Assembly: GCA_963796095.1 (NCBI GenBank)
Contig: CAWCKL010000013.1
Span: forward strand, 55,028-119,027
Direction: 5' to 3'
From: an uncultured Acidobacteriota bacterium
Lineage (GTDB): Bacteria; Acidobacteriota; Terriglobia; Terriglobales; Acidobacteriaceae
Length of the DNA stretch: 64,000 nt
The translations under genes and the position numbers were made by a program. The notes beneath the pieces were generated by a model. The model saw only the letters and a list, made by a program, of their open reading frames with translations, was not told the DNA's origin and made no database searches. Below are positions 4,735-47,410 of the stretch, piece after piece (position 1 is the stretch's first letter; each line of letters begins with the position of its first letter).

Positions 4735-6351
4735 GTGGCACGGGCGCCCCGCGCCGGCGTAAACTTTTCACGGGATATGGTTACCGATCTTCAAATCATG
4801 GCTCGCAAAGTGGTCTCTGTGAATCCCGCGACCGGGGAGACACTGCGCGAATTTGAATGTGCCTCTGAGCGGGACGTTCAGGCTGCAGTGGCTCGGGCTC
4901 GCGCCGCTCAGCCCGCGTGGAACGAATTGGGAGTGCGCCGACGAGTCGCGATCCTTCGCGAGTTTCAACGAGTGCTCCACGAGAGGAAATCGGAAGTCGC
5001 CGCTCTGATTACTCGCGAGGCCGGCAAGCCGATGGTAGAAGCGCTGCTTACGGAAGTTCTGGTCGTGTTGGATGCTACGCGCTTCTGTGTCGAAAATGCC
5101 TTTGCGTTCTTGCGGGAACGGCCGGTTCCGCACGGCAATCTAGCCATGAAAACCAGGACGGGGCGCATTCTGCGCGAGCCGCATGGAGTGATTGGGATTG
5201 TCTCGCCGTGGAATTATCCGTTCTCCATTCCTGCCACGGAATCGTTGTCCGCACTCGTAACCGGAAATGCGGTGGTGCTGAAGCCATCAGAACTCACTTC
5301 CCTGACCGCTGTGGAACTGGCTTCATTGCTGCATCAGGCCGGCGTGCCGAAGGATGTATTTCAAGTCATCGTTGGCGATGGTTCCACGGGCTCGGCGTTG
5401 CTGAACGCGGAAATCGATAAGCTGATCTTTACCGGAAGCGTTGCTACGGGCAAGCGTATTGCGCCGGCTGTTGCGGCGCGCTTGCTTCCAGTCGTGCTCG
5501 AGCTAGGCGGAAAAGATCCCATGCTGGTGCTCGATGACGCGGATGTGGACGTTGCGTCCAGCGGCGCGGTCTGGGGCGCGTTCGTGAATTGCGGACAAGC
5601 TTGTCTTTCGGTCGAGCGTTGTTACGTGCATCGCAGCTTGTATGAGGCATTCCTCAACGCTTGCGTGCGAAAAACCAAACAACTGCGTGTTGGCAACGGG
5701 ACTGATCTGCAAATCGACGTTGGCCCGCTGATCCACGAGCGCCAAACGCGGAATGTCGAGGCGCAGGTTGAAGAAGCGTGCAGGCACGGCGCGCGCGTGC
5801 TGACCGGAGGTTCACGGCTCGCACAGCTGGGATCGAATTTTTACGCTCCGACCGTGCTGGCTAACGTCACCCATGCCATGCATATCATGCGCGAGGAGAC
5901 GTTTGGTCCCGTTCTTCCAGTGATGCCGTTCGACAGCGACGAAGAGGCCATCCGGTTGGCCAACGATTCTGACTTTGGTCTCGCTGCCAGTGTTTGGACG
6001 CGTGATCGTGCCCGCGGAGAGTCATTGGCGCGGCGCATCCATGCGGGGACGGTCATGGTGAACGACGCGGTCGCCTGCTTCGGCATCAGCGAGGCTCCCC
6101 ATGGTGGCGTGAAGGCCAGCGGCATGGGGCGCACCCACGGGCGCTTCGGCATGGAAGAAATGGTGCGCATCAAGCACGTGGATTCCGACCGTCTGCCGGG
6201 AATGAAGAAAATCTGGTGGTACGGGTACGGCCAAGGGTTCACGCGACAGATGGACGGATTTCTCGATCTCATGTTCGCTCGCGGGCTTGGCCAAAAACTG
6301 CGAGGTGCAGTACGCTCGGCGGGAGCGTATGTCCGAAAAGGGCGGCTCTAG
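4735..6351 (+). CDS. NAD(P)+-dependent aldehyde dehydrogenase family protein
   Basis: LELGGKDP (catalytic Glu region) and FVNCGQACLSVER (catalytic Cys). The true start may be the ATG at 4777 or 4798 rather than the GTG at 4735. Confidence 0.9.
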   Translation: MARAPRAGVNFSRDMVTDLQIMARKVVSVNPATGETLREFECASERDVQAAVARARAAQPAWNELGVRRRVAILREFQRVLHERKSEVAALITREAGKPMVEALLTEVLVVLDATRFCVENAFAFLRERPVPHGNLAMKTRTGRILREPHGVIGIVSPWNYPFSIPATESLSALVTGNAVVLKPSELTSLTAVELASLLHQAGVPKDVFQVIVGDGSTGSALLNAEIDKLIFTGSVATGKRIAPAVAARLLPVVLELGGKDPMLVLDDADVDVASSGAVWGAFVNCGQACLSVERCYVHRSLYEAFLNACVRKTKQLRVGNGTDLQIDVGPLIHERQTRNVEAQVEEACRHGARVLTGGSRLAQLGSNFYAPTVLANVTHAMHIMREETFGPVLPVMPFDSDEEAIRLANDSDFGLAASVWTRDRARGESLARRIHAGTVMVNDAVACFGISEAPHGGVKASGMGRTHGRFGMEEMVRIKHVDSDRLPGMKKIWWYGYGQGFTRQMDGFLDLMFARGLGQKLRGAVRSAGAYVRKGRL

Positions 6352-6501
6352 CCGCACGTTCTGGTCTGTCCCATTCAACGCGAGGTTGCTTAGTTGGATA
6401 GGCAAAGCGCCATTTGTTATCTATAAGGTAATAAACGTAATCGTCAGTTCTCATCCCAAAATCATGAGATCGAGGCGAGAGCCGGCAGAGCTTGACGCGC
6501 A

Positions 6502-7214
6502 GTGTACAGTTTCTGTCACTCAACTCGCGTCGAGGGGGCGACGGTCGGAGAATACTGTGAGGAGAAGACCGTGTCCACCTTCGAGCCTGACCCACAAGCG
6601 GGAGTAGTCGGTTTCCAGCTTTCTGCACTTAGAGCCTACGGCACAGAATCCGGGACAATTGAAGGAGTTGGTTTTTGGCCGCAAGCCGGCGGCACCTGTC
6701 TCGATCTGCTCGTACACATTTTGGTGGGGTTCTGTGCCGGGCTTCTGTTTACTATAGTACAAGTGATCGCCGCGGGTGGCCACCCGGACCGACTGCTTGT
6801 CTTGAAACTGCAGCAAACCACCTTCGCGTCGTTCCTCTTGGCGACACTTGGATCGCTCGTTTATCACACCGGTTGCGAGGGCCTCCACGGAAGCACGCTG
6901 GGCAAGCTTGTCCTTTCCATGGTTGTGGTGCAGGAACATGGTTCTTCCTGCCGCCTGAAAGGAGCGGTGGTGCGATCGATGGGTTATCTCTGGATGCACT
7001 CTTCTTTGGATTGGTCGGTTATTCCGAAATGCAGAAGACGTCGCTGGAACAACGGCACGGCGACGAATGGGCGCACACTGTCGTCTGCAAGCATTCAAAC
7101 GCGCCGCCGGGAAGCCTGCGGGGCGGAGGCCGGTTTGTCATGGCATTGCTTTTCGCAATCATGGCTGATGCGGCGCTGATCATTGCCGGACTTTTGCTGA
7201 AGTTGCGCGCATGA
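6502..7214 (+). pseudogene. RDD-family membrane protein with an apparent -1/+1 frameshift near 6985
   Basis: Frame 1 carries GFWPQAGGTCLDLLV... and GSTLGKLVLSMVVV. The RDD C-terminal consensus (LDALFFGLVGY...QRHGDEWAHTVV) continues in the frame of ORF 6675..7214. The two halves join at about RSMGYL / LDALFF. Confidence 0.45.
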
Positions 7215-9168: not shown

Positions 9169-11370
9169 ATGCGCCGTTTGTTCGGTTTGATCGTGTTTGC
9201 ATCATTGGTTGTTTCTGCTTCAGCTCAGAGTAAGCATCCGTTTACGTTTGAAGACATGATGGCGCTCAAGCGCGTCAACGAACCCATTGTCTCGCCCGAC
9301 GGGAAATGGGTGTTATTCAGTGCGGTCGACGTTAGTCTGGAAGCAAACACGAAGACGCCGCATGTGTGGGTGGTGCCGACCGCTGGAGGCGAAGCACGCG
9401 AGATCATTCATGTTCAGGAATCGGATCGTCCGCGGTGGGCGCCTGACGGCAAACGCTTTCTGTTCTTGTCATCGAAAGAAGGTGGATCGCAGATTTGGAT
9501 TGCGGATTTTGATGACACCAAGGGGACTGTTACAGCGACGCACAAGCTGACTTCGATTGCCACAGAAGCCGATGGCCCCATCTGGTCGCCCGACGGGAAG
9601 AACATTCTTTTTATTTCGAATGTCTACCCCGAATGCCCCGACGAAGCTTGCAATGCGAAAAAAGTGGAGGAAGCGGAGAAGTCGAAGGTCAAAGCGCTGA
9701 TATTCACGCATCTGCTTTATCGCCACTGGAACGCGTACAAGGAGGGGAAGCGTAATCATCTTCTGATCATCGCGGCTGAGGGGGGCGCGAGCCGCGATCT
9801 CACTCCGGGGGACCATGATGTGCCGCCGTTCAGCTTGGGTGGGCAGGACGATTACGCTTTCTCGCCCGATGGGCAGGAGATTTGTTATACCTCGAATCGC
9901 GATGCCGTCGAGGCCCTCAGCACCAACAACGATTTGTTTATTGTTTCCGTAAATGGCGGAGCAGCGAAGAAGATTACGGACAATCCCGCGAGTGATTCGT
10001 CGCCACTTTATTCGCCGGATGGGAAGTACATTGCGTATCGCGCGCAGGTTCGGGCGGGATACGAGAGCGACCGGTTTCGGTTGATGCTGTACAACCGGCG
10101 CAGCGGACACATCCGGAATTTGACGGAGACCTTCGACCGTTGGGTGGGAACTTACACGTGGGATCCCGATTCGTCCAAAATTTACTTCGTTGCAGAGGAT
10201 AAGGGCGATTCGCCCGTCTATTCCATCGCGCTGGACACCGCTGTCATCGGCGGTGACGCAGGCAATGATACGACCGCCCATCTTACGAAAAACAATGTCA
10301 AGATGATTGTGCCGGGTCACGACGACGATCTTGCTGTGACCCACGACGGTAAAACTCTTTTATTTACGCGCATGTCGGTCAGGTTCCCCAACGAAATTTT
10401 TCGTGCCACCTTGGCGCAGCCTGGCGCGGCTGCTGCTTCGGCTTCTTCTCCGACCGTGTTCGAATCTCAGGAGGTGTGTACGGATTCGAGTGGGAAGATT
10501 AAGCCTGAGGGATGCAAAGGCGCGAGCGTGGATAAACGTGAAGTGCAACTCACCGATCTCAATCATTCCGTGCTCGCTCGAGTGGCAATGTCTCCGCTTG
10601 AATCTTTCTGGTTCACGGGCGCGGCTAACGATAAAGTTGAGGCCTTCTTTATCAAGCCGCCGAACTTCGATGCTAACAAGAAATATCCGGTCAAGTTCCT
10701 CATTCATGGAGGGCCGCAGGGAGCGTGGGGGGACGACTGGAGCTATCGCTGGAATCCCGAACTGTTCGCGGCCAACGGGTATGTGGTGGTGATGATCAAT
10801 TTCCATGGATCGACGGGCTACGGGCAGAAGTTCATCGATGCGGTCAACGGCGATTGGGGTGGGGCACCGTTTGAAGATCTGATGAAGGGCCTGGATGATG
10901 CCGAGCGCACCTATCCATTCATCGACAAGGACCGCGAGTGCGCTTTGGGCGCTAGCTTCGGCGGCTACATGGCCAACTGGATTCTCGGCCATTCACAGCG
11001 CTTCAAATGCATCGTCTCGCACGATGGGACGTTCAACAACGAATCCGACTGGGGCACTACCGAGGAGCTTTGGTTCGAGGAGTGGGAGCTCAAAGGGCCG
11101 CTCTACAACAACCGTGAACTCTATCGGAAATGGTCGCCGCACTTGTCGGCGCTGAATTTCAAGACTCCTACGCTTGTTATCCACGGCCAGCTGGATTACC
11201 GGTTGGATGTGTCAGAGGGATTCCAGCTCTTCACCACTTTGCAGCGCCTGAATGTGCCATCGAAGATGCTGTACTTCCCGGATGAGGGACACTGGGTGCT
11301 CAAGCCGCAGAACAGCCAGCTCTGGTACAAGACGGTGAACGAGTGGGTGGATCAGTGGACAAAGAAGTGA
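9169..11370 (+). CDS. S9-family serine peptidase (prolyl oligopeptidase / acylaminoacyl-peptidase type), secreted
   Basis: Signal peptide MRRLFGLIVFASLVVSASAQ. N-terminal propeller repeats (SPDGKWV, APDGKRF, SPDGKNI, SPDGQEI, SPDGKYI). C-terminal hydrolase with the GASFGGYM nucleophile elbow and the DEGHW His motif. Confidence 0.9.
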   Translation: MRRLFGLIVFASLVVSASAQSKHPFTFEDMMALKRVNEPIVSPDGKWVLFSAVDVSLEANTKTPHVWVVPTAGGEAREIIHVQESDRPRWAPDGKRFLFLSSKEGGSQIWIADFDDTKGTVTATHKLTSIATEADGPIWSPDGKNILFISNVYPECPDEACNAKKVEEAEKSKVKALIFTHLLYRHWNAYKEGKRNHLLIIAAEGGASRDLTPGDHDVPPFSLGGQDDYAFSPDGQEICYTSNRDAVEALSTNNDLFIVSVNGGAAKKITDNPASDSSPLYSPDGKYIAYRAQVRAGYESDRFRLMLYNRRSGHIRNLTETFDRWVGTYTWDPDSSKIYFVAEDKGDSPVYSIALDTAVIGGDAGNDTTAHLTKNNVKMIVPGHDDDLAVTHDGKTLLFTRMSVRFPNEIFRATLAQPGAAAASASSPTVFESQEVCTDSSGKIKPEGCKGASVDKREVQLTDLNHSVLARVAMSPLESFWFTGAANDKVEAFFIKPPNFDANKKYPVKFLIHGGPQGAWGDDWSYRWNPELFAANGYVVVMINFHGSTGYGQKFIDAVNGDWGGAPFEDLMKGLDDAERTYPFIDKDRECALGASFGGYMANWILGHSQRFKCIVSHDGTFNNESDWGTTEELWFEEWELKGPLYNNRELYRKWSPHLSALNFKTPTLVIHGQLDYRLDVSEGFQLFTTLQRLNVPSKMLYFPDEGHWVLKPQNSQLWYKTVNEWVDQWTKK

Positions 11371-35116: not shown

Positions 35117-36442
35117 TCACGCCGCTGCTTCGGAGGAAACCGGCGTGAGCGTGACTTGATACCCCAAGCTGACCAGCTTTTTGACCAGCCTGGAACGGAC
35201 TGCCTCTTGGTTCACCCGATCGAAAAAATCTCCACCGAGCTCCGCATACGGGCATTGCCGTGTCAGAAGATAGTAGGCAATTCTCAGCATCGAGTGCGCC
35301 ACGGCTACGATCGTCTTCTTCTTGCCCTTGCGAACGATGAAGTGTTTGTATTGGGCTCCCAGATACGTGTCCTTGGTGCGGGACGCGGCCCAGGCTGCTT
35401 CACAGAGCGCTCGCCGCAGCCAAATGTTGCCTTTGGGCGTTTTTCCGGAGAGACGTTTCCCCGCGCTCTCATTATTGCCGGGACATATCCCTGCCCATTT
35501 CGCCAACTGGCTGGCGCTGCCAAACTGATCCATGTTGGCTCCCATTTCCGCTACCAACGTCCAGGCTGTTACCTTGTCGACGCCTGGGATCGTATCCAAC
35601 AGCTCCACCGCCCTCTGCAAGGAACTGGTTGGAGGCGTGGAGGCGGTGTCCACCTCGGCGATCGCGGAACCTTCCGGTCGACAAGGTTCCGGCTCCTGCA
35701 GGAGTAAGCGCTGAATTTCCGCTTCCAACTGGCGAAGTCGCTCCTCGCCAGATTCCACCAACTCCAGCAAGGCCTGGATTTGAAAGCCATGATGTTCGGT
35801 GAAATGACCTTCCAAAGCCAACTGCAACTCGCTCAGTTTTTTTCGCAAGCGCCCGCGTGCCAGCTGCGCCAGTTGCTTTGGATCCCGTTGCCCTTTGATC
35901 AAGGCCTTCAGCATCTCGCGCCCCGAGACTCCTAGTACATCCGTGGCCACCGAACCCAGTTTCACATTGGCGTCCTCCAATACCTTCTGGATGCGGTTGG
36001 CAAAGGTGGCCACGTTCTGCCCGATCTTGGCCCGCGTGCGCGTCAGGTCCCGCAAACGACGAATGCTCTCGGGCGGAACAAAACTCCCCTTCAACAGACC
36101 ATGCTGCAGTAACTCGGCAATCCATTCGCTGTCCTTTTGGTCCGTCTTTCGCCCCGGCACATGCTTGACGTAATGGGCGTTCACCAAAAGCAATTGATAC
36201 TTCTTCTCCGCTTCCAGAATGTTCCATACCGGTTTCCAATAAACTCCGGTCGCCTCCATCGCAATTGCCTCTACTCCTAGGTTCGCTAACCAGGTGGCCA
36301 TCTCCTTTAGATCACGGGTCATCGTCGAGAAGTATCTGCTCTGCTTCCGAAATTCCCCATCCTCATCAATCACCAACACGCAGGCCGTGACACTGTTCTT
36401 GTGTACGTCCATGCCGCAACAACGCTTGTACACGATCCGCAT
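35117..36442 (-). CDS. IS110-family DEDD transposase/recombinase
   Basis: Start at the ATG at 36442 (AAAAGGAG SD). MRIVYKRCCGMDVHKNSV, IAMEATGVYW, VNAHYVKHVPGRKTDQKDS, and a C-terminal GVDKVTAWTLVAEMG...QLAKWAGICPGNNESAGK domain. Confidence 0.9.
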   Translation of the reverse strand: MRIVYKRCCGMDVHKNSVTACVLVIDEDGEFRKQSRYFSTMTRDLKEMATWLANLGVEAIAMEATGVYWKPVWNILEAEKKYQLLLVNAHYVKHVPGRKTDQKDSEWIAELLQHGLLKGSFVPPESIRRLRDLTRTRAKIGQNVATFANRIQKVLEDANVKLGSVATDVLGVSGREMLKALIKGQRDPKQLAQLARGRLRKKLSELQLALEGHFTEHHGFQIQALLELVESGEERLRQLEAEIQRLLLQEPEPCRPEGSAIAEVDTASTPPTSSLQRAVELLDTIPGVDKVTAWTLVAEMGANMDQFGSASQLAKWAGICPGNNESAGKRLSGKTPKGNIWLRRALCEAAWAASRTKDTYLGAQYKHFIVRKGKKKTIVAVAHSMLRIAYYLLTRQCPYAELGGDFFDRVNQEAVRSRLVKKLVSLGYQVTLTPVSSEAAA

Positions 36443-36760
36443 AACAGGCTCCTTTTCTGAGCCCGGCTGCGAGGACGCTAGGAGTAATTTGGAGTCTCCC
36501 CCGCGTGCTCGGAAAAATCCGGCGACAATTCGTTGTGCCATGCAGCGTCCAGGTCAAACTCCCTCGCGGGCTCAGCCGCGCCAGTCTAGTGACGACCTTC
36601 GGTCCGCACCAGGCTCAGAACAGAGCTTATCAAACCGATCTCTATTTCATGATCCGTTGTGATCGGGAGATCATGAAAAACTCCCTCGAAAATAGCCGTA
36701 AGTGATTGATTCCACGTCGGCACATTTTCATGATCCGTTGTGAGCCACGAATCATGAGCA
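36443..36760 (-). ncRNA. candidate bridge-RNA-encoding 5' non-coding end of the IS110 element
   Basis: About 300 nt of non-coding sequence upstream of the recombinase with several hairpins: TTTCATGATC...GATCATGAAA at 36645-36678, TCATGAT...ATCATGA at 36728-36757, CGCGG...CCGCG, and GACCttcgGTC. The call rests on position and structure only. Confidence 0.3.
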
Positions 36761-36835: not shown

Positions 36836-37345
36836 CTACATCCCAGACTCATCCGCCGACGGCCCATAAATCGCAGGCACCGCGATGTTATTCAACCGCA
36901 GGTAAACGCCCAGTTGCGCCCGATGATGAATGTTGTGATTCATCACCCAAGTGCGCAGACAAGCCATTCGCGGCATGGAAAAGACGGCCACACCGTTGTT
37001 AAGAAATGACCAGTTCTTTCCCAGGTCGGAATCACTCGCTCCGGCGAGAGCTGTGCGCGCAGCAGCCACGTTCTTATCAAACAACTCCAACAGCTCCTTG
37101 CGCGATTTGGGCACCGACGGCGGCTGAAATCCTTTGCCCCCAGGATTCATGTCGAAGCCATCCTTAGTGATGGTCTCAACCGCCCACTGAGGAATGTTGG
37201 CGAGATGGCCGGCCAGCCAACCCATGGCGCCGGATTTCTCGTGCGGCTTCCAGGAAAACTTTTCGTCCGGAACCCGTTCCAGAGTCTTGCGAGTATTGGC
37301 CATTTCCTGATCGAACTCGGGGAGAAGAGATTGACTGAGTGACAT
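36836..37345 (-). CDS. DinB-family (DinB/YfiT-like) protein
   Basis: EFDQEMANTRKTLERVP, GWLAGHLANIPQW and HHRAQLGVYLRL His-containing four-helix-bundle pattern. 169 aa. Confidence 0.85.
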   Translation of the reverse strand: MSLSQSLLPEFDQEMANTRKTLERVPDEKFSWKPHEKSGAMGWLAGHLANIPQWAVETITKDGFDMNPGGKGFQPPSVPKSRKELLELFDKNVAAARTALAGASDSDLGKNWSFLNNGVAVFSMPRMACLRTWVMNHNIHHRAQLGVYLRLNNIAVPAIYGPSADESGM

Positions 37346-40042: not shown

Positions 40043-40171
40043 AAGGCTCCCGGCATTTCCCGAAGTCGCTACTTCACCATGCGCATCCCAAGGAACGCGC
40101 CAGAGAAATTTTTGCAAACTCGCGCGATCCTCGACGATAGCAGTTAGAATATTCGCAACTTGGCATCGCCT

Positions 40172-42922
40172 ATGGCAAGAAAATACAAAAAAGGGATCCA
40201 GCGAGCGAACGCCGTCGCCCTAGCGAATGGCGGGAACCCCGTGAATACGGAGTTTCCTCGGATTCGCGAGTTGATTGCCAGCCGGCATTCGAAGGCTGCG
40301 GTCGAACTGGCGAAGGATCTGCACAAGCGCGCCGCCACGCCCGAAAGCGAAGCTTTACTGCTCGATGCGTATCAATGCCGCATTGAGGACATGATGAGGC
40401 TGGGGATGGCTGTTGAGGCCAAGATGCTGCTGCAAATGGTGGGCGAACGCTTTCCCTTGTCGCGCGCGCGAATGCTCGACTTACAGTGGGAAATTACCGC
40501 AGCGGATGGCAGGCTTGACCACATCGTGGCGCCGCTCGCGGATGTGAACCTCCCTGCGAAAGTTCGCGAACGCATCGAGATTTTCGTCCGCCAGCGGGTG
40601 TACGATCTGCCCACCTTGGCAGCGGTGTCGTCGTTGCCCCCGGAGCATCCTTTGCGCGAGGGCGCCGTGGCACTCGGGGCGGCGTTCCGGGCCGTGACGC
40701 GTGGGCCCGTAGACGACCAGGTTCTGGCCCTGCCGCAGGTGTCCCGGCGCAGCGCGCTCGGTGGATGGAAGGCACTGATCTGGGCGATCGCCAGCTTCTA
40801 TCGGCGCGAGGACGACGCCTGCCAAAAATGGCTGCGGCTGGTGCCGGCGGATTCGGCTCCCGCCAGACTGATTCGGCCTCTGCTCGCGATGTTGGGGACA
40901 GCAACCGCCAAGTCCGAGTTCAACGCAGCCGAGCAACGGCTTCTGAGCGCGGTTGGAAGCGGCAGTGCGGCGCTGCGCCCCGCGCTAGTGGCTCTTGAAC
41001 AAGCGTTGACGGCGAAAAAACCCAAAGCGCTGCTCGATGCGACCCGGTCCGCGGTCGCAATCTGCGGCCAATGCTTTCCCAAGATTCGCGAGCGACTGCG
41101 CCAGCATATTCTGATTCACTCTCTGGCGCGCGGGCTGTGGCGTTCCGAAATGCTTGCGGCGATTGGCGGCCCGCCGCGGGAAAACGCCTATTTCTGCAGA
41201 CTGATGGCGCGAAGTTTCGAACACCATATGGATTGGGACAGCATGGCGGAAGCGCTGTTTCATTGGGAATCGTTCCGGCGCGAAGCCATCCGGGAAAAAT
41301 GGTTTGCCGCGGGGAGCCTGGAGGATGGCGTGCTTTCCTTGCATATGGCGAAGCTCGCCGAGCGATTGCCTGCTGACTCTTTCGACGAATTCGACTCGAT
41401 GCGCCCGCTCCGCCGTGACCGAAGCGTCGGAGGACTAGGAGACGGCGATCTGCGTTCTCCCGAGATGTTGTACGAGCGGGCGTGCCGGGCCGATCCGCAT
41501 CCGGACGCGTTTCAGGCGTGGCTGCATTGGGCGGACAAACATCGGGGTTGGAAGGCGGCCGATCAGGTGGCTGAGCTTTGGCGGCAAACCCGGCCCGGAG
41601 ACACAAGACCCCCGCTCTATCTGATGGAATCGGCCGAGAAGCGCGGGGCCTATCGGAAGTCGCTCGAACATCTCGAAAGCGCGGAAGAACTCGACCGGCT
41701 TAACCCAGACGTGCGGCGGGCCAAACTGCGGTTGCTGCTTTCGGCAGCCATACGCCATCTGAGGCAACGCAAGACGCACTTGGTCAAGGAAGCGGAAATC
41801 GACCCCATCGAGGCTTTACCGGAAGTGCGGGAGGGAGAGATTGCTTCTTTCGGAACCGTGTTGCGCCTCCTCTCCGCCGTGCTCGATGGAGACAAGGTCT
41901 CAATCGAACAGCACCACGAGCGGCTCCAGTCATTGGTCGGCGGTCGGGTGCCCGCTTTTGTATTGACCTATGGTCTGGCGAAAACCGCGAACCTCGATGG
42001 CAAGGTGGAACTGCCGACGGTCGAGCTTGCCCGGTTTTCCGCCACGGAACTGCTCACTGGAACCACGCGAGCCGTTGCCCTGGGCGATTGGGCGGGTCTG
42101 GGGCTGCCCCTGCCGCCGTCCTGGGAAGAACATCTGCTTGCCGCCTTAGATCAGGCCAACTGCCCCACCGACATTACGCAACTGCTGGTGCTCGGAGAGG
42201 CTGCCTTGCGCAGTGAGGCCATGAAGTTGGCATACGCGGTGTCGGCAGTGGGTCTGGCCCAGGGCACCGCCGATGCCAGGTTTCTGTTCCTTCGCGGTCG
42301 GGTGCTGCCTGACTGGCACCCCAGGCGGCAGGAGGGGTGTTTCACGGCGGCTCTCGAACTCGCCCGGCGCGAGCGCAGCCTGGAACTGGCGGGGAACATC
42401 CTCGATGAAATGCGCGAGAACGATGATCGCTTCTGGGGAGTTGATTTTCTGGACGACGCTACCGCCAACCGACCTGTGCCGGCAGAGTTGCTGAAGCAGA
42501 TCCTAGAGGAAGAGCGGGCGGAAAGGCAGTTTCCCGTTTACGAACGCAGCAGTCCTGCCCAGTATGGCTCCAAGCTTCGACGGCGCGATTGCGACTGCCC
42601 GGATTGTCGTGCCCGGCGCGGGGCAACGCCGAGCGATTGGGGCGAAGACGATGGAGAGGACCAGGACCAGAACGAGTTTGCCGAACCTCCGCCCGCCGTT
42701 TTTTCCCGTGCACTGGAGCAGTTCGAGCAGTTTCTGGGTAGGCTTCCTCCCCGGATCGCACGGAAAGTGGAAGAAGCGATTGCGCGCGGAGAACCGCCCG
42801 AAATTGCGGTGCCCAAAATTTTCAGGAACGTTCCGCCGGAGATGCGGCCGTCTACGCCCGGCGGAAAGACAAAGAAGGCAACGGGAACTCTTCCGTCGCC
42901 CGCACAGGGCAATCTGTTTTAG
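40172..42922 (+). CDS. 917-aa helical-repeat protein of unknown function, first gene of the Hsp70 module
   Basis: Uninterrupted 2.75-kb ORF (ATG at 40172; the track starts at the TTG at 40160). Leu/Ala/Arg/Glu-rich throughout. C-terminal CDCPDCRARRG, an acidic DWGEDDGEDQDQNEF run, and a basic tail. No catalytic motif recognised. Confidence 0.75.
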   Translation: MARKYKKGIQRANAVALANGGNPVNTEFPRIRELIASRHSKAAVELAKDLHKRAATPESEALLLDAYQCRIEDMMRLGMAVEAKMLLQMVGERFPLSRARMLDLQWEITAADGRLDHIVAPLADVNLPAKVRERIEIFVRQRVYDLPTLAAVSSLPPEHPLREGAVALGAAFRAVTRGPVDDQVLALPQVSRRSALGGWKALIWAIASFYRREDDACQKWLRLVPADSAPARLIRPLLAMLGTATAKSEFNAAEQRLLSAVGSGSAALRPALVALEQALTAKKPKALLDATRSAVAICGQCFPKIRERLRQHILIHSLARGLWRSEMLAAIGGPPRENAYFCRLMARSFEHHMDWDSMAEALFHWESFRREAIREKWFAAGSLEDGVLSLHMAKLAERLPADSFDEFDSMRPLRRDRSVGGLGDGDLRSPEMLYERACRADPHPDAFQAWLHWADKHRGWKAADQVAELWRQTRPGDTRPPLYLMESAEKRGAYRKSLEHLESAEELDRLNPDVRRAKLRLLLSAAIRHLRQRKTHLVKEAEIDPIEALPEVREGEIASFGTVLRLLSAVLDGDKVSIEQHHERLQSLVGGRVPAFVLTYGLAKTANLDGKVELPTVELARFSATELLTGTTRAVALGDWAGLGLPLPPSWEEHLLAALDQANCPTDITQLLVLGEAALRSEAMKLAYAVSAVGLAQGTADARFLFLRGRVLPDWHPRRQEGCFTAALELARRERSLELAGNILDEMRENDDRFWGVDFLDDATANRPVPAELLKQILEEERAERQFPVYERSSPAQYGSKLRRRDCDCPDCRARRGATPSDWGEDDGEDQDQNEFAEPPPAVFSRALEQFEQFLGRLPPRIARKVEEAIARGEPPEIAVPKIFRNVPPEMRPSTPGGKTKKATGTLPSPAQGNLF

Positions 42923-42931
42923 GGTAATGGG

Positions 42932-43243
42932 ATGAACCGAGAAACCGACCGCGCGTCCAATCCGCACGCCGTGCTCGGCGTTGGGCCGGAAGCCGACGAC
43001 GAGCAGATTCGTGCCGCTTATCTCGGCAAGCTCAAGCAGTATCCGCCGGACCGCTGTCCCGACGAGTTCGAAAGCGTGCGTGATGCCTATGATCTGCTGC
43101 GCGACCGGCGCCGGCGCGCGCAGCACACCCTGTTCTCCTGCGATCCGGAGGCCCCTTTAGAATCCCTGCTCGATGGCGCGCGCGACGAGAGGAATTACAC
43201 CGGGTCCGAACCGTGGCTGGCAGTATTGAAAGAAAAAAAGTAG
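42932..43243 (+). CDS. J-like domain protein lacking the HPD histidine
   Basis: NPHAVLGVGPEADDEQIRAAYLGKLKQYPPDRCPDEFESVRDAYDLLRD aligns to the J-domain consensus (D.Y.iLGV...A....I..AYr.la.kyHPDr......F..i..AYevL), with PPD in place of HPD. 103 aa, no G/F or Zn-finger region. Confidence 0.75.
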   Translation: MNRETDRASNPHAVLGVGPEADDEQIRAAYLGKLKQYPPDRCPDEFESVRDAYDLLRDRRRRAQHTLFSCDPEAPLESLLDGARDERNYTGSEPWLAVLKEKK

Positions 43244-43250
43244 ACAACGA

Positions 43251-44042
43251 ATGGATGTACATGCCCTCTCCGGGAGGCACTCTCCGGAACAACGCGAGCG
43301 TTTGGTGCGGCACTTCGAGGCTTGGCTGGAAAAAGCGCTGGCCGACGAGGCGCCGCCTTCGGGATTGACTGCCGAGTTGCTGTCTGCGCTCGAAACCGGC
43401 GATCCGCTTCCGCCCGTCGATCGAAGTTGCGATCTCTATTCTCTGTGGTGCGCCATGACCGTTCTCACCCAGGAAGTCCGGTTGCAAGGGCGAGCATTTA
43501 CGCAGTTGAAAGATACGCTGTTCCGGGGGCCGGAGGCGTCCGCCGCGGAGCGGCGGAATGCGGAGGCCGCCGCCCAGTCATCCGCCGAAACGCCGCGCAG
43601 CAAGCAAGCGCAAAGGCGGGAGATCGACACTCTACTTGATCTGCGGGATCGCGTGGAACGCGGACGGAGCGCGGCGCAGAGCGCCGCCGAGGAGCTGGCT
43701 CCCTCACGTCGGCCGCGCTGGGCGCGCTGGCTGGGAATTGGCCGGAGGCGCGCGCGGCAGACGCAGGAGATTCTCGCTGCACTTTCCCAGGGCTACGGCC
43801 TTACCCTGGACCGGCTCGATCAGGCGCTGCTCGATCTCCATGTCAGCGCAATCCGGTCTGATGGACAAAGGTTCGATCCGCAGCGTATGACGGCCATTGC
43901 CATCGGGGAGACCGACGAGGTGCCTGAAGGAACCGTGGTCGAAGTCTACCGCAACGGTTACGAGTGGGAAAGCGAAGTGTATCGTCCCGCTCAGGTCAAA
44001 GTGGCGCGACCGCGAGCATGGAACGGAAGAGAAAGGAACTGA
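43251..44042 (+). CDS. GrpE-like nucleotide exchange factor
   Basis: LLDLRDRVERG and LDRLDQALLDLHVSAIRSDGQRFDPQRMTAIAIGETDEVPEGTVVEVYRNGYEWESEVYRPAQVKVARP match the GrpE four-helix-bundle and beta-domain consensus. Confidence 0.75.
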   Translation: MDVHALSGRHSPEQRERLVRHFEAWLEKALADEAPPSGLTAELLSALETGDPLPPVDRSCDLYSLWCAMTVLTQEVRLQGRAFTQLKDTLFRGPEASAAERRNAEAAAQSSAETPRSKQAQRREIDTLLDLRDRVERGRSAAQSAAEELAPSRRPRWARWLGIGRRRARQTQEILAALSQGYGLTLDRLDQALLDLHVSAIRSDGQRFDPQRMTAIAIGETDEVPEGTVVEVYRNGYEWESEVYRPAQVKVARPRAWNGRERN

Positions 44043-44044
44043 CA

Positions 44045-45877
44045 ATGAGCGATCTGATTGTGGGTATCGATTTGGGGACCACCAACTCCGAGGTAGCGGC
44101 TTTCGATGCGGGCAAAGTTCAGGTGCTAGAGTCGGGCCAGAGCAAATTACTTCCTTCGGTCGTCGGACTATCTCCGTCGGGCGAGTTGCTGGTGGGCGAG
44201 GCTGCCCGCAATCAGTTGGTGTTGTATCCGGAACGCACCGTGCGCAGCATCAAGCGCAAGATGGGCAGTAGCGAAACGGTTTCGCTTGGAGAGCGGCAGT
44301 TTCGGCCGCCAGAGATCTCGGCGCTGATTCTGCGCGAACTCGCCACTTGGGCCGGCCGGGCACTCCAGCAAACGGTCGAAAAAGCGGTCATCACCGTGCC
44401 CGCTTACTTTTCCGACGCGCAACGGCAGGCCACGCGAGAAGCGGCCCAACTGGCCGGCCTCGAGGCCGTGCGCATCCTGAACGAACCGACGGCGGCAAGT
44501 TTGGCCTATGGAGAAGGCAGCCGGCACAACGCTATGGTTTATGACCTTGGCGGCGGAACTTTCGACGTCTCGATCGTGGCTCTGGAAGGCGATATCACCG
44601 AAGTGCTTGCCAGTCACGGAAATAACCAACTGGGGGGCGACGACTTCAACGACCTGCTGGCCGAGCATTTGCTCGCGACCTTTCAGCACAACTATGGCAT
44701 CGATCTCCGGTGGGACCATCCCGTGGCCCGCGCCCGCGTCTGGTGGGCGGCCGAAGAAGCCAAGCGCCGGTTGAGTTTCGAGCCCGAGACGACGGTGCGT
44801 GAAGAAGCCTTGGTCACACTCGACGGCAAGCCGCTGCATCTCGAACTGGAGATCACCCGCGAACGCTACGAAAGCATGATTCGTCCGCTGCTTGAGCAGA
44901 CGCTGGAAAGCGTATCGAAAGCGTTGGCGGATGCTCGCAAGGGCCCTTCCGACCTCGATGCCATTTTGTTGGTCGGCGGCTCCACGCGCACCCCGCTGAT
45001 TGCCGAGATGCTGAAGGAGCGCACCGGCATAACTCCACGGGAAGAAATTCATCCCGACCTGTGCGTCGCTCTCGGCGCCGGCGTGCTGGCCTCGCGACTG
45101 GGGGGCCACGATGTGGAGCGGGTGCTGGTCGACGTATCGCCGTATTCGTTCGGAGTCTCCTATCTCGGAGAACGCGGCGGCGTTCCTTATCCGCATTGCT
45201 ACAAACCGATCCTGCGGCGCAACAGCCCATTGCCCATCACCCGCACCGAACGCTTCTATACCAGCCATGCGTACCAGGAAGAAGTGGAAATTTGCGTGTA
45301 CGAGGGCGAGGACGAGGATGCTCTGCGCGATATCCTGGTCGGCGAGTTCCAGGTGAAGGGCCTCACTCCGGTGCGAGACGAGAACGAAGTGCTCTGCCGC
45401 ATGAGCGTGGACTTGGACGGAATTCTGCACGTTACGGCCATCGAAAAGCGCTCTGGCCTGTCCAAGCACATCACTATTGCCCGCGCCCTCGAGAGCAAGA
45501 GCGAAGCCGAAATTACCGAAGCCCGGAAACGTCTGGAGGCTCTCTATTCCCCGGGCCAGAGCGAGCAGGAGGACGCCGAACTCGAAGAAGCCCAAGGCTC
45601 GGACCAGATGGTCAACGAGGATTCGCTTCGAGTCCAGCCTGCGGCAGGGGAAAATTTCGCGGCGAACGACGACTGGAGTTCGGTCGCCCGCGAGGGAAAG
45701 CAATTGATCGAACGCTCCCGCCAATTGCTCGAGCAGTTGCACGAAGAGGATCGGGAAGAAGCGATCGACTTGAACGCGCAGATCGAATCCGCAATCGGCG
45801 CCAACGATGCCACTGCACTCAAGCAGGCGGCAAGCGATTTGCGGGAGTTGCTGTTCTTCGTGGAGGGCCGCGCATGA
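44045..45877 (+). CDS. Hsp70-family ATPase (non-housekeeping paralog)
   Basis: Start at the ATG at 44045 (MSDLIVGIDLGTTNSEVA), 2 nt after the GrpE-like stop. DLGGGTFDVS and LLVGGSTRTPLI are NBD signatures. The SBD is divergent and the C-terminus is an acidic coiled tail. Confidence 0.9.
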   Translation: MSDLIVGIDLGTTNSEVAAFDAGKVQVLESGQSKLLPSVVGLSPSGELLVGEAARNQLVLYPERTVRSIKRKMGSSETVSLGERQFRPPEISALILRELATWAGRALQQTVEKAVITVPAYFSDAQRQATREAAQLAGLEAVRILNEPTAASLAYGEGSRHNAMVYDLGGGTFDVSIVALEGDITEVLASHGNNQLGGDDFNDLLAEHLLATFQHNYGIDLRWDHPVARARVWWAAEEAKRRLSFEPETTVREEALVTLDGKPLHLELEITRERYESMIRPLLEQTLESVSKALADARKGPSDLDAILLVGGSTRTPLIAEMLKERTGITPREEIHPDLCVALGAGVLASRLGGHDVERVLVDVSPYSFGVSYLGERGGVPYPHCYKPILRRNSPLPITRTERFYTSHAYQEEVEICVYEGEDEDALRDILVGEFQVKGLTPVRDENEVLCRMSVDLDGILHVTAIEKRSGLSKHITIARALESKSEAEITEARKRLEALYSPGQSEQEDAELEEAQGSDQMVNEDSLRVQPAAGENFAANDDWSSVAREGKQLIERSRQLLEQLHEEDREEAIDLNAQIESAIGANDATALKQAASDLRELLFFVEGRA

Positions 45878-46140
45878 GTGGCGAAAGCGCACTTTGCTGT
45901 CCAGTCTGCAAGGCCCGGTTTCGCGGTGCTCAACAATGTTCGCGCTGCGGTGCCGATCTTTCGGCGCCGATGCTGCTGGCGGCACACGCGTATGCTTTGC
46001 GCCAAGCGGCTCGCCAAGCGCTGCGATCGGGCGATGGGCGGACCGGCCTCGAGTCAGCCCGCGCTGCCCAAGGCCTGCACTCGACGCCCGAAGGCGGTCT
46101 TCTTCAGTCTGCGAGTGCGCTTGCCAACGGTCAGGAATGA
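45874..46140 (+). CDS. 88-aa zinc-ribbon protein, translationally coupled to the Hsp70
   Basis: Its ATG overlaps the Hsp70 TGA (ATGA at 45874-45877). MSGESALCCPVCKARFRGAQQCSRCGADL (CPxC...CxxC), then an Ala/Leu-rich helix. It is the in-frame tail of the 45061..46140 track ORF. Confidence 0.6.
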   Translation: MSGESALCCPVCKARFRGAQQCSRCGADLSAPMLLAAHAYALRQAARQALRSGDGRTGLESARAAQGLHSTPEGGLLQSASALANGQE

Positions 46141-46295: not shown

Positions 46296-46405
46296 CTAAC
46301 TAGCCAAGGACTTCGCCCTTGATATCCCGTTGAATTCCAACGGATGCAGCAACTTGACGTTACAACGAGAACAAAATTCTCGTTGTAACGTGCATAATCG
46401 ACTAA
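46296..46405 (+). mobile_element. about 110-bp mini-element (left-end repeat plus right-end hairpin) in tandem with a larger copy
   Basis: CTAACTAGCCAAGGACTTCGCCCTTGATATCCCGTTGAAT (46296-46335), then the perfect hairpin CGTTACAACGAGAAcaaaaTTCTCGTTGTAACG (46358-46390), then GTGCATAATCGACTAA. Confidence 0.5.
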
Positions 46406-47410
46406 CTAGCCAAGGGCTTCACCCTTGATATCCCATCGAATCGTACCGCTTTGCCGGGGTGATGCCGTAGAAGCATTCATGGCGGTAGTCTTCTGGGTAT
46501 TCGACTACACAGGAGATCGCCATGAACGCTTTTCTACGAGCACCACAAGAGTAGCATCGAGTTCGGATATCGATGTTTCGATCGGATCCTACTGAATGGA
46601 CTGATTCAACCCTTCCAACAACCGGAGCGGGTCGAAGACCTCGATCTTCCCAATCCCGTCATTCGCAGTCACTACGCCCACGGATTCGCCAAGCAATACG
46701 TCCGCGATGACCGCTTGCTACGAACCGAGCCGGCCACCAATGACGTCACCGACTATGGGGTCAACAAGAATGTCGACAACCTGCCGCAGTTACGCCAGCG
46801 CATGTCCGAGATCATTGACCACTACCACGATGCCCAGCAAGACATCCTGGAAACGTTCATCGATCGCGGCCAACTCCAAAAACTGGCTGAGCCCACCACC
46901 CTGACTAACGGAAAGCGCATCCCGGGCCGTAAGCTCGATCACCCTCGGCAACTGGCGGTCATGCATGCTTTGGTCCGCTTTGCTAACATCGCCGCCGGCT
47001 CCACTTTCACCACCGCTGATTTTTACCCGCCGGTATTGGACGCTCTCGGGCTTCCCCAGTCCCAATACTCTCTGGCATCGCTGCGCTACGATCTCTCCAA
47101 ACTGCGCGCCAAGCGCCTGGTCGACAAACTGCCCCACTCTCGTCGGTACCGTCTCGCCCACGAGGGCTATTCCATCTGCGTCCTCTTCCTAAAGCTATTC
47201 GAGCGCATCTATGCTCCGCTCACCGCCGGTCTCCTCAAGCCTTTCGCCGGCGATCGCAACCTCGCCCCGGACAAACGTTGTCAACTTGACCGCCTCTATC
47301 AACGGCTCACCGACGATCTCGACGCTCTCTTATCCGCAGTCGGACTCAAGACCGCTGCTTAACGAATCCAACGAGAACAAATTCTCGTTTCGAGGTGCAT
47401 AACCAACTAA
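46402..47410 (+). mobile_element. degraded repeat-bounded element carrying a frameshifted ORF
   Basis: Begins with a second copy of the 40-mer (46402-46441, 4 mismatches). Ends with AACGAGAAcaaaTTCTCGTT (47370-47389) plus GTGCATAACCAACTAA, the same order as in the mini-element. Confidence 0.5.
46522..47362 (+). pseudogene. element-encoded protein of unknown function, frameshifted after codon 4
   Basis: AGGAGA SD then ATG at 46522 gives MNAF, then a stop 6 codons later. The +1 frame reads YEHHKSSIEFGYRCFDRILLNGLIQPFQQPERVEDLDLPNPVIRSHYAHGFAKQYVRDDRLLRTEPATND... continuous with ORF 46715..47362. Confidence 0.45.

Follow-up and report, generated by a model that had tools for sequence, protein, structure and literature searches.

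A five-gene Hsp70 cassette with a predicted TPR-like scaffold and a zinc-ribbon protein in an uncultured Acidobacteriota bacterium, conserved in gene order across at least three phyla

A stretch of 64,000 nucleotides from an uncultured bacterium of the Acidobacteriaceae (GenBank assembly GCA_963796095.1, contig CAWCKL010000013.1, positions 55,028 to 119,027; the whole stretch is called the window below) carries a block of five same-strand genes that encode, in order, a large helical protein, here called the scaffold, a J-like protein, a GrpE-like protein, an Hsp70 and a small zinc-ribbon protein (ZnR). We consider it probable, at roughly 60%, that this cassette is a dedicated, self-contained Hsp70 machine, with an accessory and non-essential role alongside the ordinary DnaK system. 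The job of such a machine is, in our view, more likely to be the remodelling of a specific target, or control over the assembly of one, than general proteostasis or immunity. A dedicated Hsp70 is a known kind of system; the composition of the cassette and its breadth are new. Literature searches yielded no description of the cassette, of a J domain with a PPD triad, or of neighbourhoods that combine Hsp70, TPR and zinc-ribbon genes. The five genes lie in the window as follows.

40172-42922, + strand: cassette gene 1, TPR-like scaffold, 916 residues, read directly from its open reading frame
42932-43243, + strand: cassette gene 2, J-like protein, 103 residues, with a Pfam DnaJ match
43251-44042, + strand: cassette gene 3, GrpE-like protein, 263 residues, with a Pfam GrpE match
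44045-45877, + strand: cassette gene 4, Hsp70, 610 residues counted from ATG, with a Pfam HSP70 match
45874-46140, + strand: cassette gene 5, ZnR, 88 residues, identified by its structural model and cysteine motif

An earlier note on this DNA had described the block as one translationally coupled five-gene operon, and direct reading of the sequence agreed on the reading frames, the + strand, intergenic gaps that measure 9, 7 and 2 nt, and the 4-nt ATGA (45874-45877) that the Hsp70 and ZnR genes share. The length given there for the first protein, 917 residues, had included the stop codon and becomes 916. The block is slightly richer in G+C than its surroundings (61-63% vs 54-56%). Against a relative with 94% identity, the ratios of non-synonymous to synonymous substitution (dN/dS) were 0.40 for the scaffold, 0.38 for the J-like protein, 0.23 for the GrpE-like protein, 0.18 for Hsp70 and 0.28 for ZnR, which points to purifying selection on all five genes. 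These ratios, together with the identical gene order in about 100 independent loci, place the cassette far beyond chance.

The distribution of the cassette was established with one genome per GTDB species, 185,579 in all, scanned with clade-specific peptide patterns. Fifty-three cassette loci were found, nearly all in Acidobacteriota (Terriglobales, Bryobacterales and ‘gp2’); the sole cultured carrier among them, Edaphobacter aggregans DSM 19364, makes the cassette experimentally accessible. When the window proteins were used as tblastn queries, the order scaffold-J-GrpE-Hsp70-ZnR was seen in every genome locus that had a sufficiently long contig and a copy free of damage, with gaps mostly of 15 nt or less and the 4-nt Hsp70/ZnR overlap as the most frequent arrangement. 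Median identity to the window proteins was 46% for the scaffold, 62% for the J-like protein, 49% for the GrpE-like protein, 73% for Hsp70 and 59% for ZnR. A scan of metagenomes added 80 further loci with G+C contents of 34-73%; all 47 that had room hold the five genes in order, and the incomplete cassettes stop at contig edges. More distant scaffolds, of 30-35% identity, stand in the same cassette on a 53-kb contig and in metagenome-assembled genomes (MAGs) of Planctomycetes, Desulfobacteraceae/Desulfobacterales and ‘Deltaproteobacteria’, and two look-ups started from ZnR ended in the cassette again, one in the Olavius algarvensis Delta 1 endosymbiont, the other on a 737-kb contig. The gene-neighbourhood census that had been suggested for close homologs thus shows the five genes together in at least three phyla, and the cassette is conserved as a unit in Acidobacteriota, Planctomycetota and Desulfobacterota. 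As a separate observation, locus L036 bears the label Deltaproteobacteria, and locus L057 comes from a MAG labelled Candidatus Limnocylindria. The L057 cassette proteins have almost the same pattern as their ‘gp2’ acidobacterial counterparts, the ZnR of L053 being one example; the L057 contig may be misbinned or recently transferred.

The genes on either side do not travel with the cassette. In an all-against-all clustering of flanking open reading frames, no family recurred in more than 4 of the 53 genome loci or more than 9 of 86 metagenome loci, and the families shared by a few loci are generic (response regulators, ABC ATPases, PIN toxins and insertion sequence elements). The absence of a recurring flank family rules out a sixth conserved gene, whether a linked client or an effector, so that the unit is self-contained. 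Several copies are damaged. In L033 (8611-11824) the scaffold, read as far as residue ~724, continues straight into Hsp70 at residue ~318; the intervening J and GrpE genes have been deleted and the ZnR gene is kept. In L024 a group II intron reverse transcriptase/maturase (RVT_N, RVT_1 and GIIM domains; 5294-6829, - strand) is inserted, in antisense orientation, near the 3′ terminus of the grpE-like gene, and the contig ends after the intron, before any Hsp70 gene is seen. The cassettes of L051-L053 are frameshifted. One MAG, SKS5.bin94, holds three divergent cassettes (L010, L024 and L034), with scaffolds 51%, 47% and 40% identical to that of the window; these are either paralogous acquisitions or the product of a mixed bin. 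From the degraded and multiple copies it follows that the cassette is dispensable, and it probably moves horizontally. Searches of IMG/VR, of the INPHARED phages and of the PLSDB plasmids found no relatives of the scaffold.

The Hsp70 itself appears to be a working enzyme. The three nucleotide-binding signatures listed in the earlier note (IDLGTTNS, DLGGGTFD and VGGSTRTP) are all present, the Pfam HSP70 model (PF00012) matches residues 5-570 at 435.9 bits (cut-off 20.6), covering the nucleotide-binding domain, linker and substrate-binding domain (SBD), and residues 4-514 align to Geobacillus DnaK (PDB 2v7y). The domain order is nucleotide-binding domain, linker, SBD-beta, lid and a C-terminal LFFVEG motif. 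In E. coli DnaK numbering, D8, K70, E171, D194, T199 and D201 of the ATPase site and R167, N170 and T173 of the J contact do not vary among 53 cassette Hsp70s. In the same set, the linker has an invariant and still hydrophobic RVLVD core instead of the DVLLLD of E. coli DnaK, loop L1,2 of the SBD carries an 8-residue insertion after G405, V407 is replaced by an invariant Cys, and LFFV lies inside the final ~9 residues in 52 of 53 proteins. Because the catalytic and contact residues are kept and the linker, SBD and C-terminus have these features, we read the protein from its sequence as an Hsp70 that is active and allosterically coupled, whose client cleft has changed and whose C-terminus carries a new tag.

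In its partner, Pfam DnaJ is matched at 40.7 bits (cut-off 27.8) over residues 11-64. The protein is a bare J domain of 103 residues, without a G/F region, zinc finger or C-terminal substrate-binding domains, and it scores 33.8 bits against the DnaJ equivalog TIGR02349, whose cut-off is 377. It had been called HPD-less, correctly so: the HPD position reads YPPDR. Among 57 orthologs the triad is PPD in 50, PPE in seven and HPD in none, and a C-terminal motif, GPxPWLAVLKE, retains PWL in 55 of them. On this evidence the protein is best termed J-like in the sense applied to Pam16. The combination amounts to a natural experiment on the HPD triad, which is supposed to be indispensable, with the His always replaced by Pro while the residues of Hsp70 that contact HPD stay invariant. 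In a large J-domain census, sequences without HPD were removed from the main dataset and analysed apart (PMC10410713), and this removal may explain why the J-like family escaped notice.

The GrpE-like protein matches Pfam GrpE over residues 97-252 (72 bits; cut-off 25.8). Against the best NCBIfam GrpE equivalog it reaches 47.9 bits with a cut-off of 164, and across the NCBIfam models listed it stays at or below 48 bits vs cut-offs of 137-348. The N-terminal 100 residues matched no Pfam family; a motif in this extension, WL[DE]..LA.E.PP.G, is kept across phyla. By sequence, then, it is a predicted nucleotide exchange factor of GrpE type with a cassette-specific N-terminal extension. For these three proteins the sequences show that the ATPase and J-contact residues are intact and that a GrpE and a sole J partner are co-encoded; all five genes stay together in one order and are usually translationally coupled.

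That Hsp70, GrpE and J-domain genes share an operon could also suggest the housekeeping dnaK/grpE/dnaJ set in an odd layout, a reading that we regard as very improbable and reject on indirect evidence. The Hsp70 scores 453 bits against the DnaK equivalog NF001413 (cut-off 648) and 436.6 against TIGR02350 (cut-off 822.55), which with the GrpE scores above bears out the non-housekeeping layout that had been proposed, and the J protein has no HPD. CIRCE and HAIR operators, allowing up to 4 and up to 2 mismatches, were absent from the 400 nt before the cassette in 124 loci, which speaks against heat-shock control; sigma-32-type promoters were not part of that search. Copies are broken by deletion, a group II intron and frameshifts, one MAG has three of them, and the clade-specific peptide patterns matched only 53 of the 185,579 species genomes, whereas dnaK is found in 98.9% of bacterial genomes (PMC11019930). 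An identity with HscA/HscB was likewise ruled out: the Hsp70 reaches 362 bits against HscA models with cut-offs of 620-709, and isc genes are not in the cassette flanks.

The scaffold is always gene 1 of the cassette. As had been proposed from its letters, the protein is all-helical in the AlphaFold2 model (pLDDT, the model's per-residue confidence score, 80): residues ~23-750 form a helical solenoid, followed by a mostly disordered acidic/basic C-terminal tail that ends, in the window, in QGNLF. Nothing in Pfam, NCBIfam or PADLOC matched it, no Pfam TPR model did so at E ≤ 0.1, the tail alone found nothing in Pfam, and a profile run against PDB sequences returned noise only (best E 0.059, a designed TPR). 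With Foldseek against the PDB, 39 matches at E ≤ 1e-3 were obtained, mostly to TPR and helical-repeat scaffolds from large complexes; Ctr9, APC3/6/8, TTC7B, Ski3, OGT and Naa15 were matched with E-values of 7e-6 to 1e-3 and TM-scores of 0.1-0.25, which inform on fold class only. The protein thus has generic TPR-solenoid folds as its only structural matches and lacks a characterised family, and the model establishes a TPR-like alpha-solenoid and nothing finer. Neither AlphaFold2 nor Foldseek led to a recognisable catalytic domain.

An exhaustive profile search put the scaffold family at 1363 clusters at 50% identity, 529 of them with E ≤ 1e-30. The close homologs, more than 140, are each ~900-970 residues long, and all those with an organism name are Acidobacteriota. 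Conserved residues are mainly structural, with a few charged motifs besides; the best-conserved motif across the entire family is an SRRSPLAxWK loop. A basic cluster in the tail is always present. The tail ends in QG[SND]LF in 114 of 116 Terriglobia-clade proteins, and a polybasic run occurs in 96 of 150 distant representatives. About ten distant scaffolds (P0153, P0162, P0170, P0194, P0211 and P0216 among them) end instead in an acidic stretch and [DL]PF, as in DDNLDLPF. Such an end resembles the C-terminal tip of the bacterial single-stranded DNA-binding protein, DDDIPF.

The last gene had been read as a zinc ribbon, and its protein indeed has a CPVC-x9-CSRC arrangement followed by three helices. 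In the AlphaFold2 model (pLDDT 89) the ribbon spans residues 7-28 and the helices 30-51, 55-68 and 72-86; the helical part (pLDDT >90) resembles 1.5 TPR repeats. No Pfam or NCBIfam family was matched at E ≤ 0.1 and no significant fold in the PDB by Foldseek (best E 0.5). The motif CPVC.A.[FW]R....C.RCG is found in 51 of 53 proteins. A profile search gave 1989 hits, of which the best 120 are 86-123 residues long, and the hits P0359, P0339 and P0345 are each the last gene of a five-gene cassette. Additions to the C-terminus vary: a starch/glycogen-binding CBM20 domain (Pfam, 73.5 bits) in L038 (~10033-10690) and in L041, both from ‘gp2’ acidobacterial MAGs; a hydrophobic helix like a tail anchor in L022, L026, L027, L029, L032 and L037; and a polybasic tail in L042 and L054. 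These sequence variants hint at different cellular sites of action.

We suggest that the parts would work together as follows. The five proteins would build a stoichiometric complex in which the solenoid scaffold would be either the platform that selects or holds the remodelled target or itself an assembly that is taken apart. The C-terminal LFFVEG of Hsp70 could dock on TPR surfaces as EEVD does in eukaryotes, and the scaffold tail, with its basic residues and LF, or else the SRRSPLAxWK loop, might sit in the modified SBD cleft in the way of the LPPVK of IscU or the QLMLT of clathrin. The PPD J-like protein would gate ATP hydrolysis rather than freely stimulate it, the GrpE-like protein would reset the cycle, and the zinc-ribbon/mini-TPR protein may escort or localise Hsp70.

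The precedents for these contacts come from different systems. The C-terminal EEVD peptide of eukaryotic Hsp70 binds the TPR co-chaperones Hop, CHIP and Tom70, and the cassette likewise pairs an Hsp70 that has a conserved extreme C-terminus with TPR-type proteins; its tag is hydrophobic, however, unlike EEVD, and Foldseek aligned the mini-TPR part of ZnR with Hop, Tom71 and Sgt2 only at non-significant E-values of 0.5-3, so we treat the likeness as a lead only. HscA recognises IscU through LPPVK. Rapoport is said to have found in 2008 that Hsc70 recognises the clathrin heavy chain through a C-terminal QLMLT, and according to Rudiger in 1997 the DnaK-type cleft reportedly prefers a short hydrophobic motif beside a basic cluster. 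Clathrin, in its pairing with Hsc70 and auxilin, resembles the scaffold in being a solenoid whose disordered C-terminal tail bears an Hsp70-type motif.

This last likeness leads to a variant in which the scaffold would be the obligate client, a coat, lattice or membrane- or granule-associated assembly that the co-encoded Hsp70 builds or dismantles, much as Hsc70 and auxilin do with clathrin. The long alpha-solenoid and its disordered tail, with a conserved hydrophobic motif beside a basic cluster, would suit such a client, as would the clathrin QLMLT precedent; no other candidate client is found among the neighbouring genes, and the CBM20, hydrophobic and polybasic additions to ZnR are of a localisation type. 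The end of the tail differs by clade (LF, polybasic or acidic-PF), however, and the monomer model is silent on oligomers. We think this variant improbable as a specific account, and it is a sub-case of the dedicated machine rather than a true alternative to it.

As a whole, the cassette finds its best functional analogy in the mitochondrial presequence translocase-associated motor (PAM), in which mtHsp70 works with the scaffold Tim44, the HPD-less Pam16, the zinc-ribbon protein Tim15/Zim17/Hep1, the GrpE homolog Mge1 and the HPD protein Pam18 (PMC9695410). Both combine a specialised Hsp70, a GrpE-type factor, an HPD-less J-like protein, a zinc-ribbon protein and a non-catalytic scaffold; in PAM the zinc-ribbon protein is an Hsp70 escort and Tim44 recruits the Hsp70. 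PAM differs in being eukaryotic and membrane-bound, and Tim44 has no TPR solenoid. The likeness is one of analogy, with homology limited to the Hsp70, GrpE and J domains. A match of ZnR to Hep1/Zim17/Tim15 (zf-DNL) was absent from Pfam at E ≤ 0.1 and from its 50 best PDB folds. Ruc (Rv0991c), a redox-regulated chaperone with a four-Cys zinc ribbon, is linked to dnaK/grpE loci and cooperates with Hsp70 (PMC7448276); like ZnR it is a small four-Cys zinc-ribbon protein, but its C-terminus is disordered and its Cys spacing is different, whereas ZnR has a three-helix C-terminal domain. With no family match and no significant fold, a Hep1-like or Ruc-like identity of ZnR is not supported.

Among bacterial systems, the canonical DnaK-DnaJ-GrpE set shares with the cassette its three superfamilies and the logic of ATPase, J contact and linker; the cassette differs by its bare PPD J protein, two more obligatory genes, and a changed SBD loop, linker and C-terminus. 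Closer in kind are paralogous Hsp70s that each have a co-chaperone to themselves and a restricted task, namely HscA/HscB with IscU, HscC with DjlB and DjlC, and DnaK2/GrpS. To our knowledge, HscA and HscC work without GrpE. The DnaK2 (SglK) of Myxococcus has its own GrpE paralog, GrpS, in a bicistronic operon (PMC11019930), and the triad of DjlB and DjlC is a variant, HPE (PMC10410713). The HscA, HscC and DnaK2 systems have no TPR scaffold, zinc-ribbon partner or PPD triad. The composition of the cassette, which the earlier note could match to no described system, found no description in the literature, Pfam or NCBIfam either. Beyond DnaK/DnaJ/GrpE, HscA and HscC, it would represent a fourth kind of bacterial system, with two obligatory partner families that are uncurated, and it parallels a TPR/C-terminal-peptide wiring and import-motor parts that are usually deemed eukaryotic. 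A bolder version, which we put forward tentatively and hold to be doubtful, is that the cassette is an undescribed, ancient and widespread Hsp70 machine with eukaryote-like logic (TPR platform, C-terminal docking peptide on Hsp70, HPD-less J-like regulator and zinc-ribbon escort), used for a directed mechanical task such as pulling, uncoating or disassembly at a defined site, or else an immune sensor without an effector. Were this true, the universal PP[D/E] triad would be a new mode of coupling between J domain and Hsp70.

Several points weigh against the dedicated machine. The docking steps were read from conserved motifs only, and the low TM-scores of the scaffold fix its fold class and no more. 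The analogy with PAM is incomplete, given that PAM has a true HPD J protein in Pam18 and the cassette has none, and that ZnR matches neither Hep1 nor Ruc in sequence or fold. With no HPD J protein in the cassette, stimulation of the ATPase may be absent, may use a host DnaJ, or may act through PPD. Finally, the sparse distribution, the degraded copies and the variable contexts would fit a mobile conflict module equally well.

Such a module would be an anti-phage or other conflict system in which the fast-evolving TPR solenoid would detect a protein of the invader and the Hsp70 cycle would serve as an NTP-dependent switch or weapon; it might, for instance, unfold or sequester phage proteins, or withhold a chaperone function that the phage needs. 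In the window the cassette sits amid an IS110 transposase and degraded elements, and recurrent neighbours in Acidobacteriota include PIN/VapC toxins, antitoxins, BrnTA/RelE, AbiEi and integrases. The genomic contexts differ everywhere, three divergent copies occur in a single MAG, several loci hold degraded copies, and the scaffold shows the lowest conservation of the five components, its median identity being 46% vs 73% for Hsp70. There are published relatives of a sort as well: the GAP1-N2 GTPase conflict systems, mostly from Actinobacteria and Firmicutes, combine Hsp70 and GrpE with FNIII-DnaJ or TPR proteins (Kaur et al. 2020, PMC7159879), and in CoCoNuT systems the degenerate Hsp70-like protein CnuD, with HEAT repeats, is attached to McrBC (PMC11090510). 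The former resemble the cassette in placing Hsp70, GrpE and DnaJ/TPR modules away from the housekeeping operon. However, no Pfam match to the GTPase or to FNIII was found on the five window proteins or nine flank reading frames, nor among the neighbours of the loci that were looked up; membership of the GAP1-N2 systems, whose defining genes these are, was ruled out, as was CoCoNuT membership, since McrB genes were not found.

Other evidence also speaks against a conflict role. No nuclease, protease, TIR, pore or NTPase toxin was recognised in the five proteins, and the components are never swapped or varied over ~100 loci, unlike those of typical defence systems. None of the five matched PADLOC-DB 2.0 at E ≤ 0.1, which, with the blank searches for scaffold relatives in phages and plasmids, rules out a known anti-phage system. 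The scaffold dN/dS is below 1, and in Planctomycetes, Desulfobacterota and large contigs the neighbours are ordinary metabolic and regulatory genes. The mobile, conflict-type setting that had been emphasised at the outset therefore holds at the window locus but not system-wide, and because it belongs to that locus rather than to the system, a conflict-related function is left without positive support. We consider it unlikely; an anti-phage role specifically is possible but unsupported. The dedicated machine, with target remodelling or assembly control as its job, remains the reading that we prefer.

Around the cassette in the window, the following features were located.

35117-36541: IS110-family transposase, intact-looking, with Pfam DEDD_Tnp_IS110 and Transposase_20 matches
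36836-37345: DinB-family gene (Pfam), after the IS110 transposase
40145-40150, + strand: candidate -10 promoter hexamer TAGAAT, ~22 nt 5′ of the first ATG
46296-46335 and 46402-46441: direct repeats of 40 nt, 90% identical, just downstream of the cassette
46357-46391: perfect hairpin with a 15-bp stem, between the two direct repeats
46471-46531: second inverted repeat, imperfect

On the left, the description as mobile-element debris stood insofar as a transposase is present; it belongs to the IS110 family, and the IS701 label was wrong. The Sel1, PIN, intron and IS701 fragments described between 37400 and 40150 had no Pfam match at E ≤ 0.01. The TAGAAT hexamer overlaps the stop codon of a 211-residue reading frame upstream. 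In the close relatives L005-L009 the sequence GGTTA[GA]AAT is conserved at a constant distance from the start codon, and the DNA further upstream is unrelated. Although a consensus search for sigma-70 promoters yielded no full site at 40145-40150, the hexamer is probably the cassette's own promoter, and this region may be the left border of the cassette. To the right, the repeat-bounded element that had been proposed is real, its repeats and hairpin having been located; it looks like a small repeat element, perhaps of the MITE (miniature inverted-repeat transposable element) type.

A minor observation concerns two of the distant loci. A VWA_2 gene lies on the opposite strand ~1 kb downstream of the cassette, past a rhomboid gene, in L063 (11164-12750; Olavius Delta 1) and on a related contig, L064 (7488-10471), followed in L064 by an AAA_5 gene (MoxR-like, a faint match). 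VWA/MoxR pairs belong to the core of published ‘ternary’ conflict systems; the VWA pattern was seen in L063 and L064 only.

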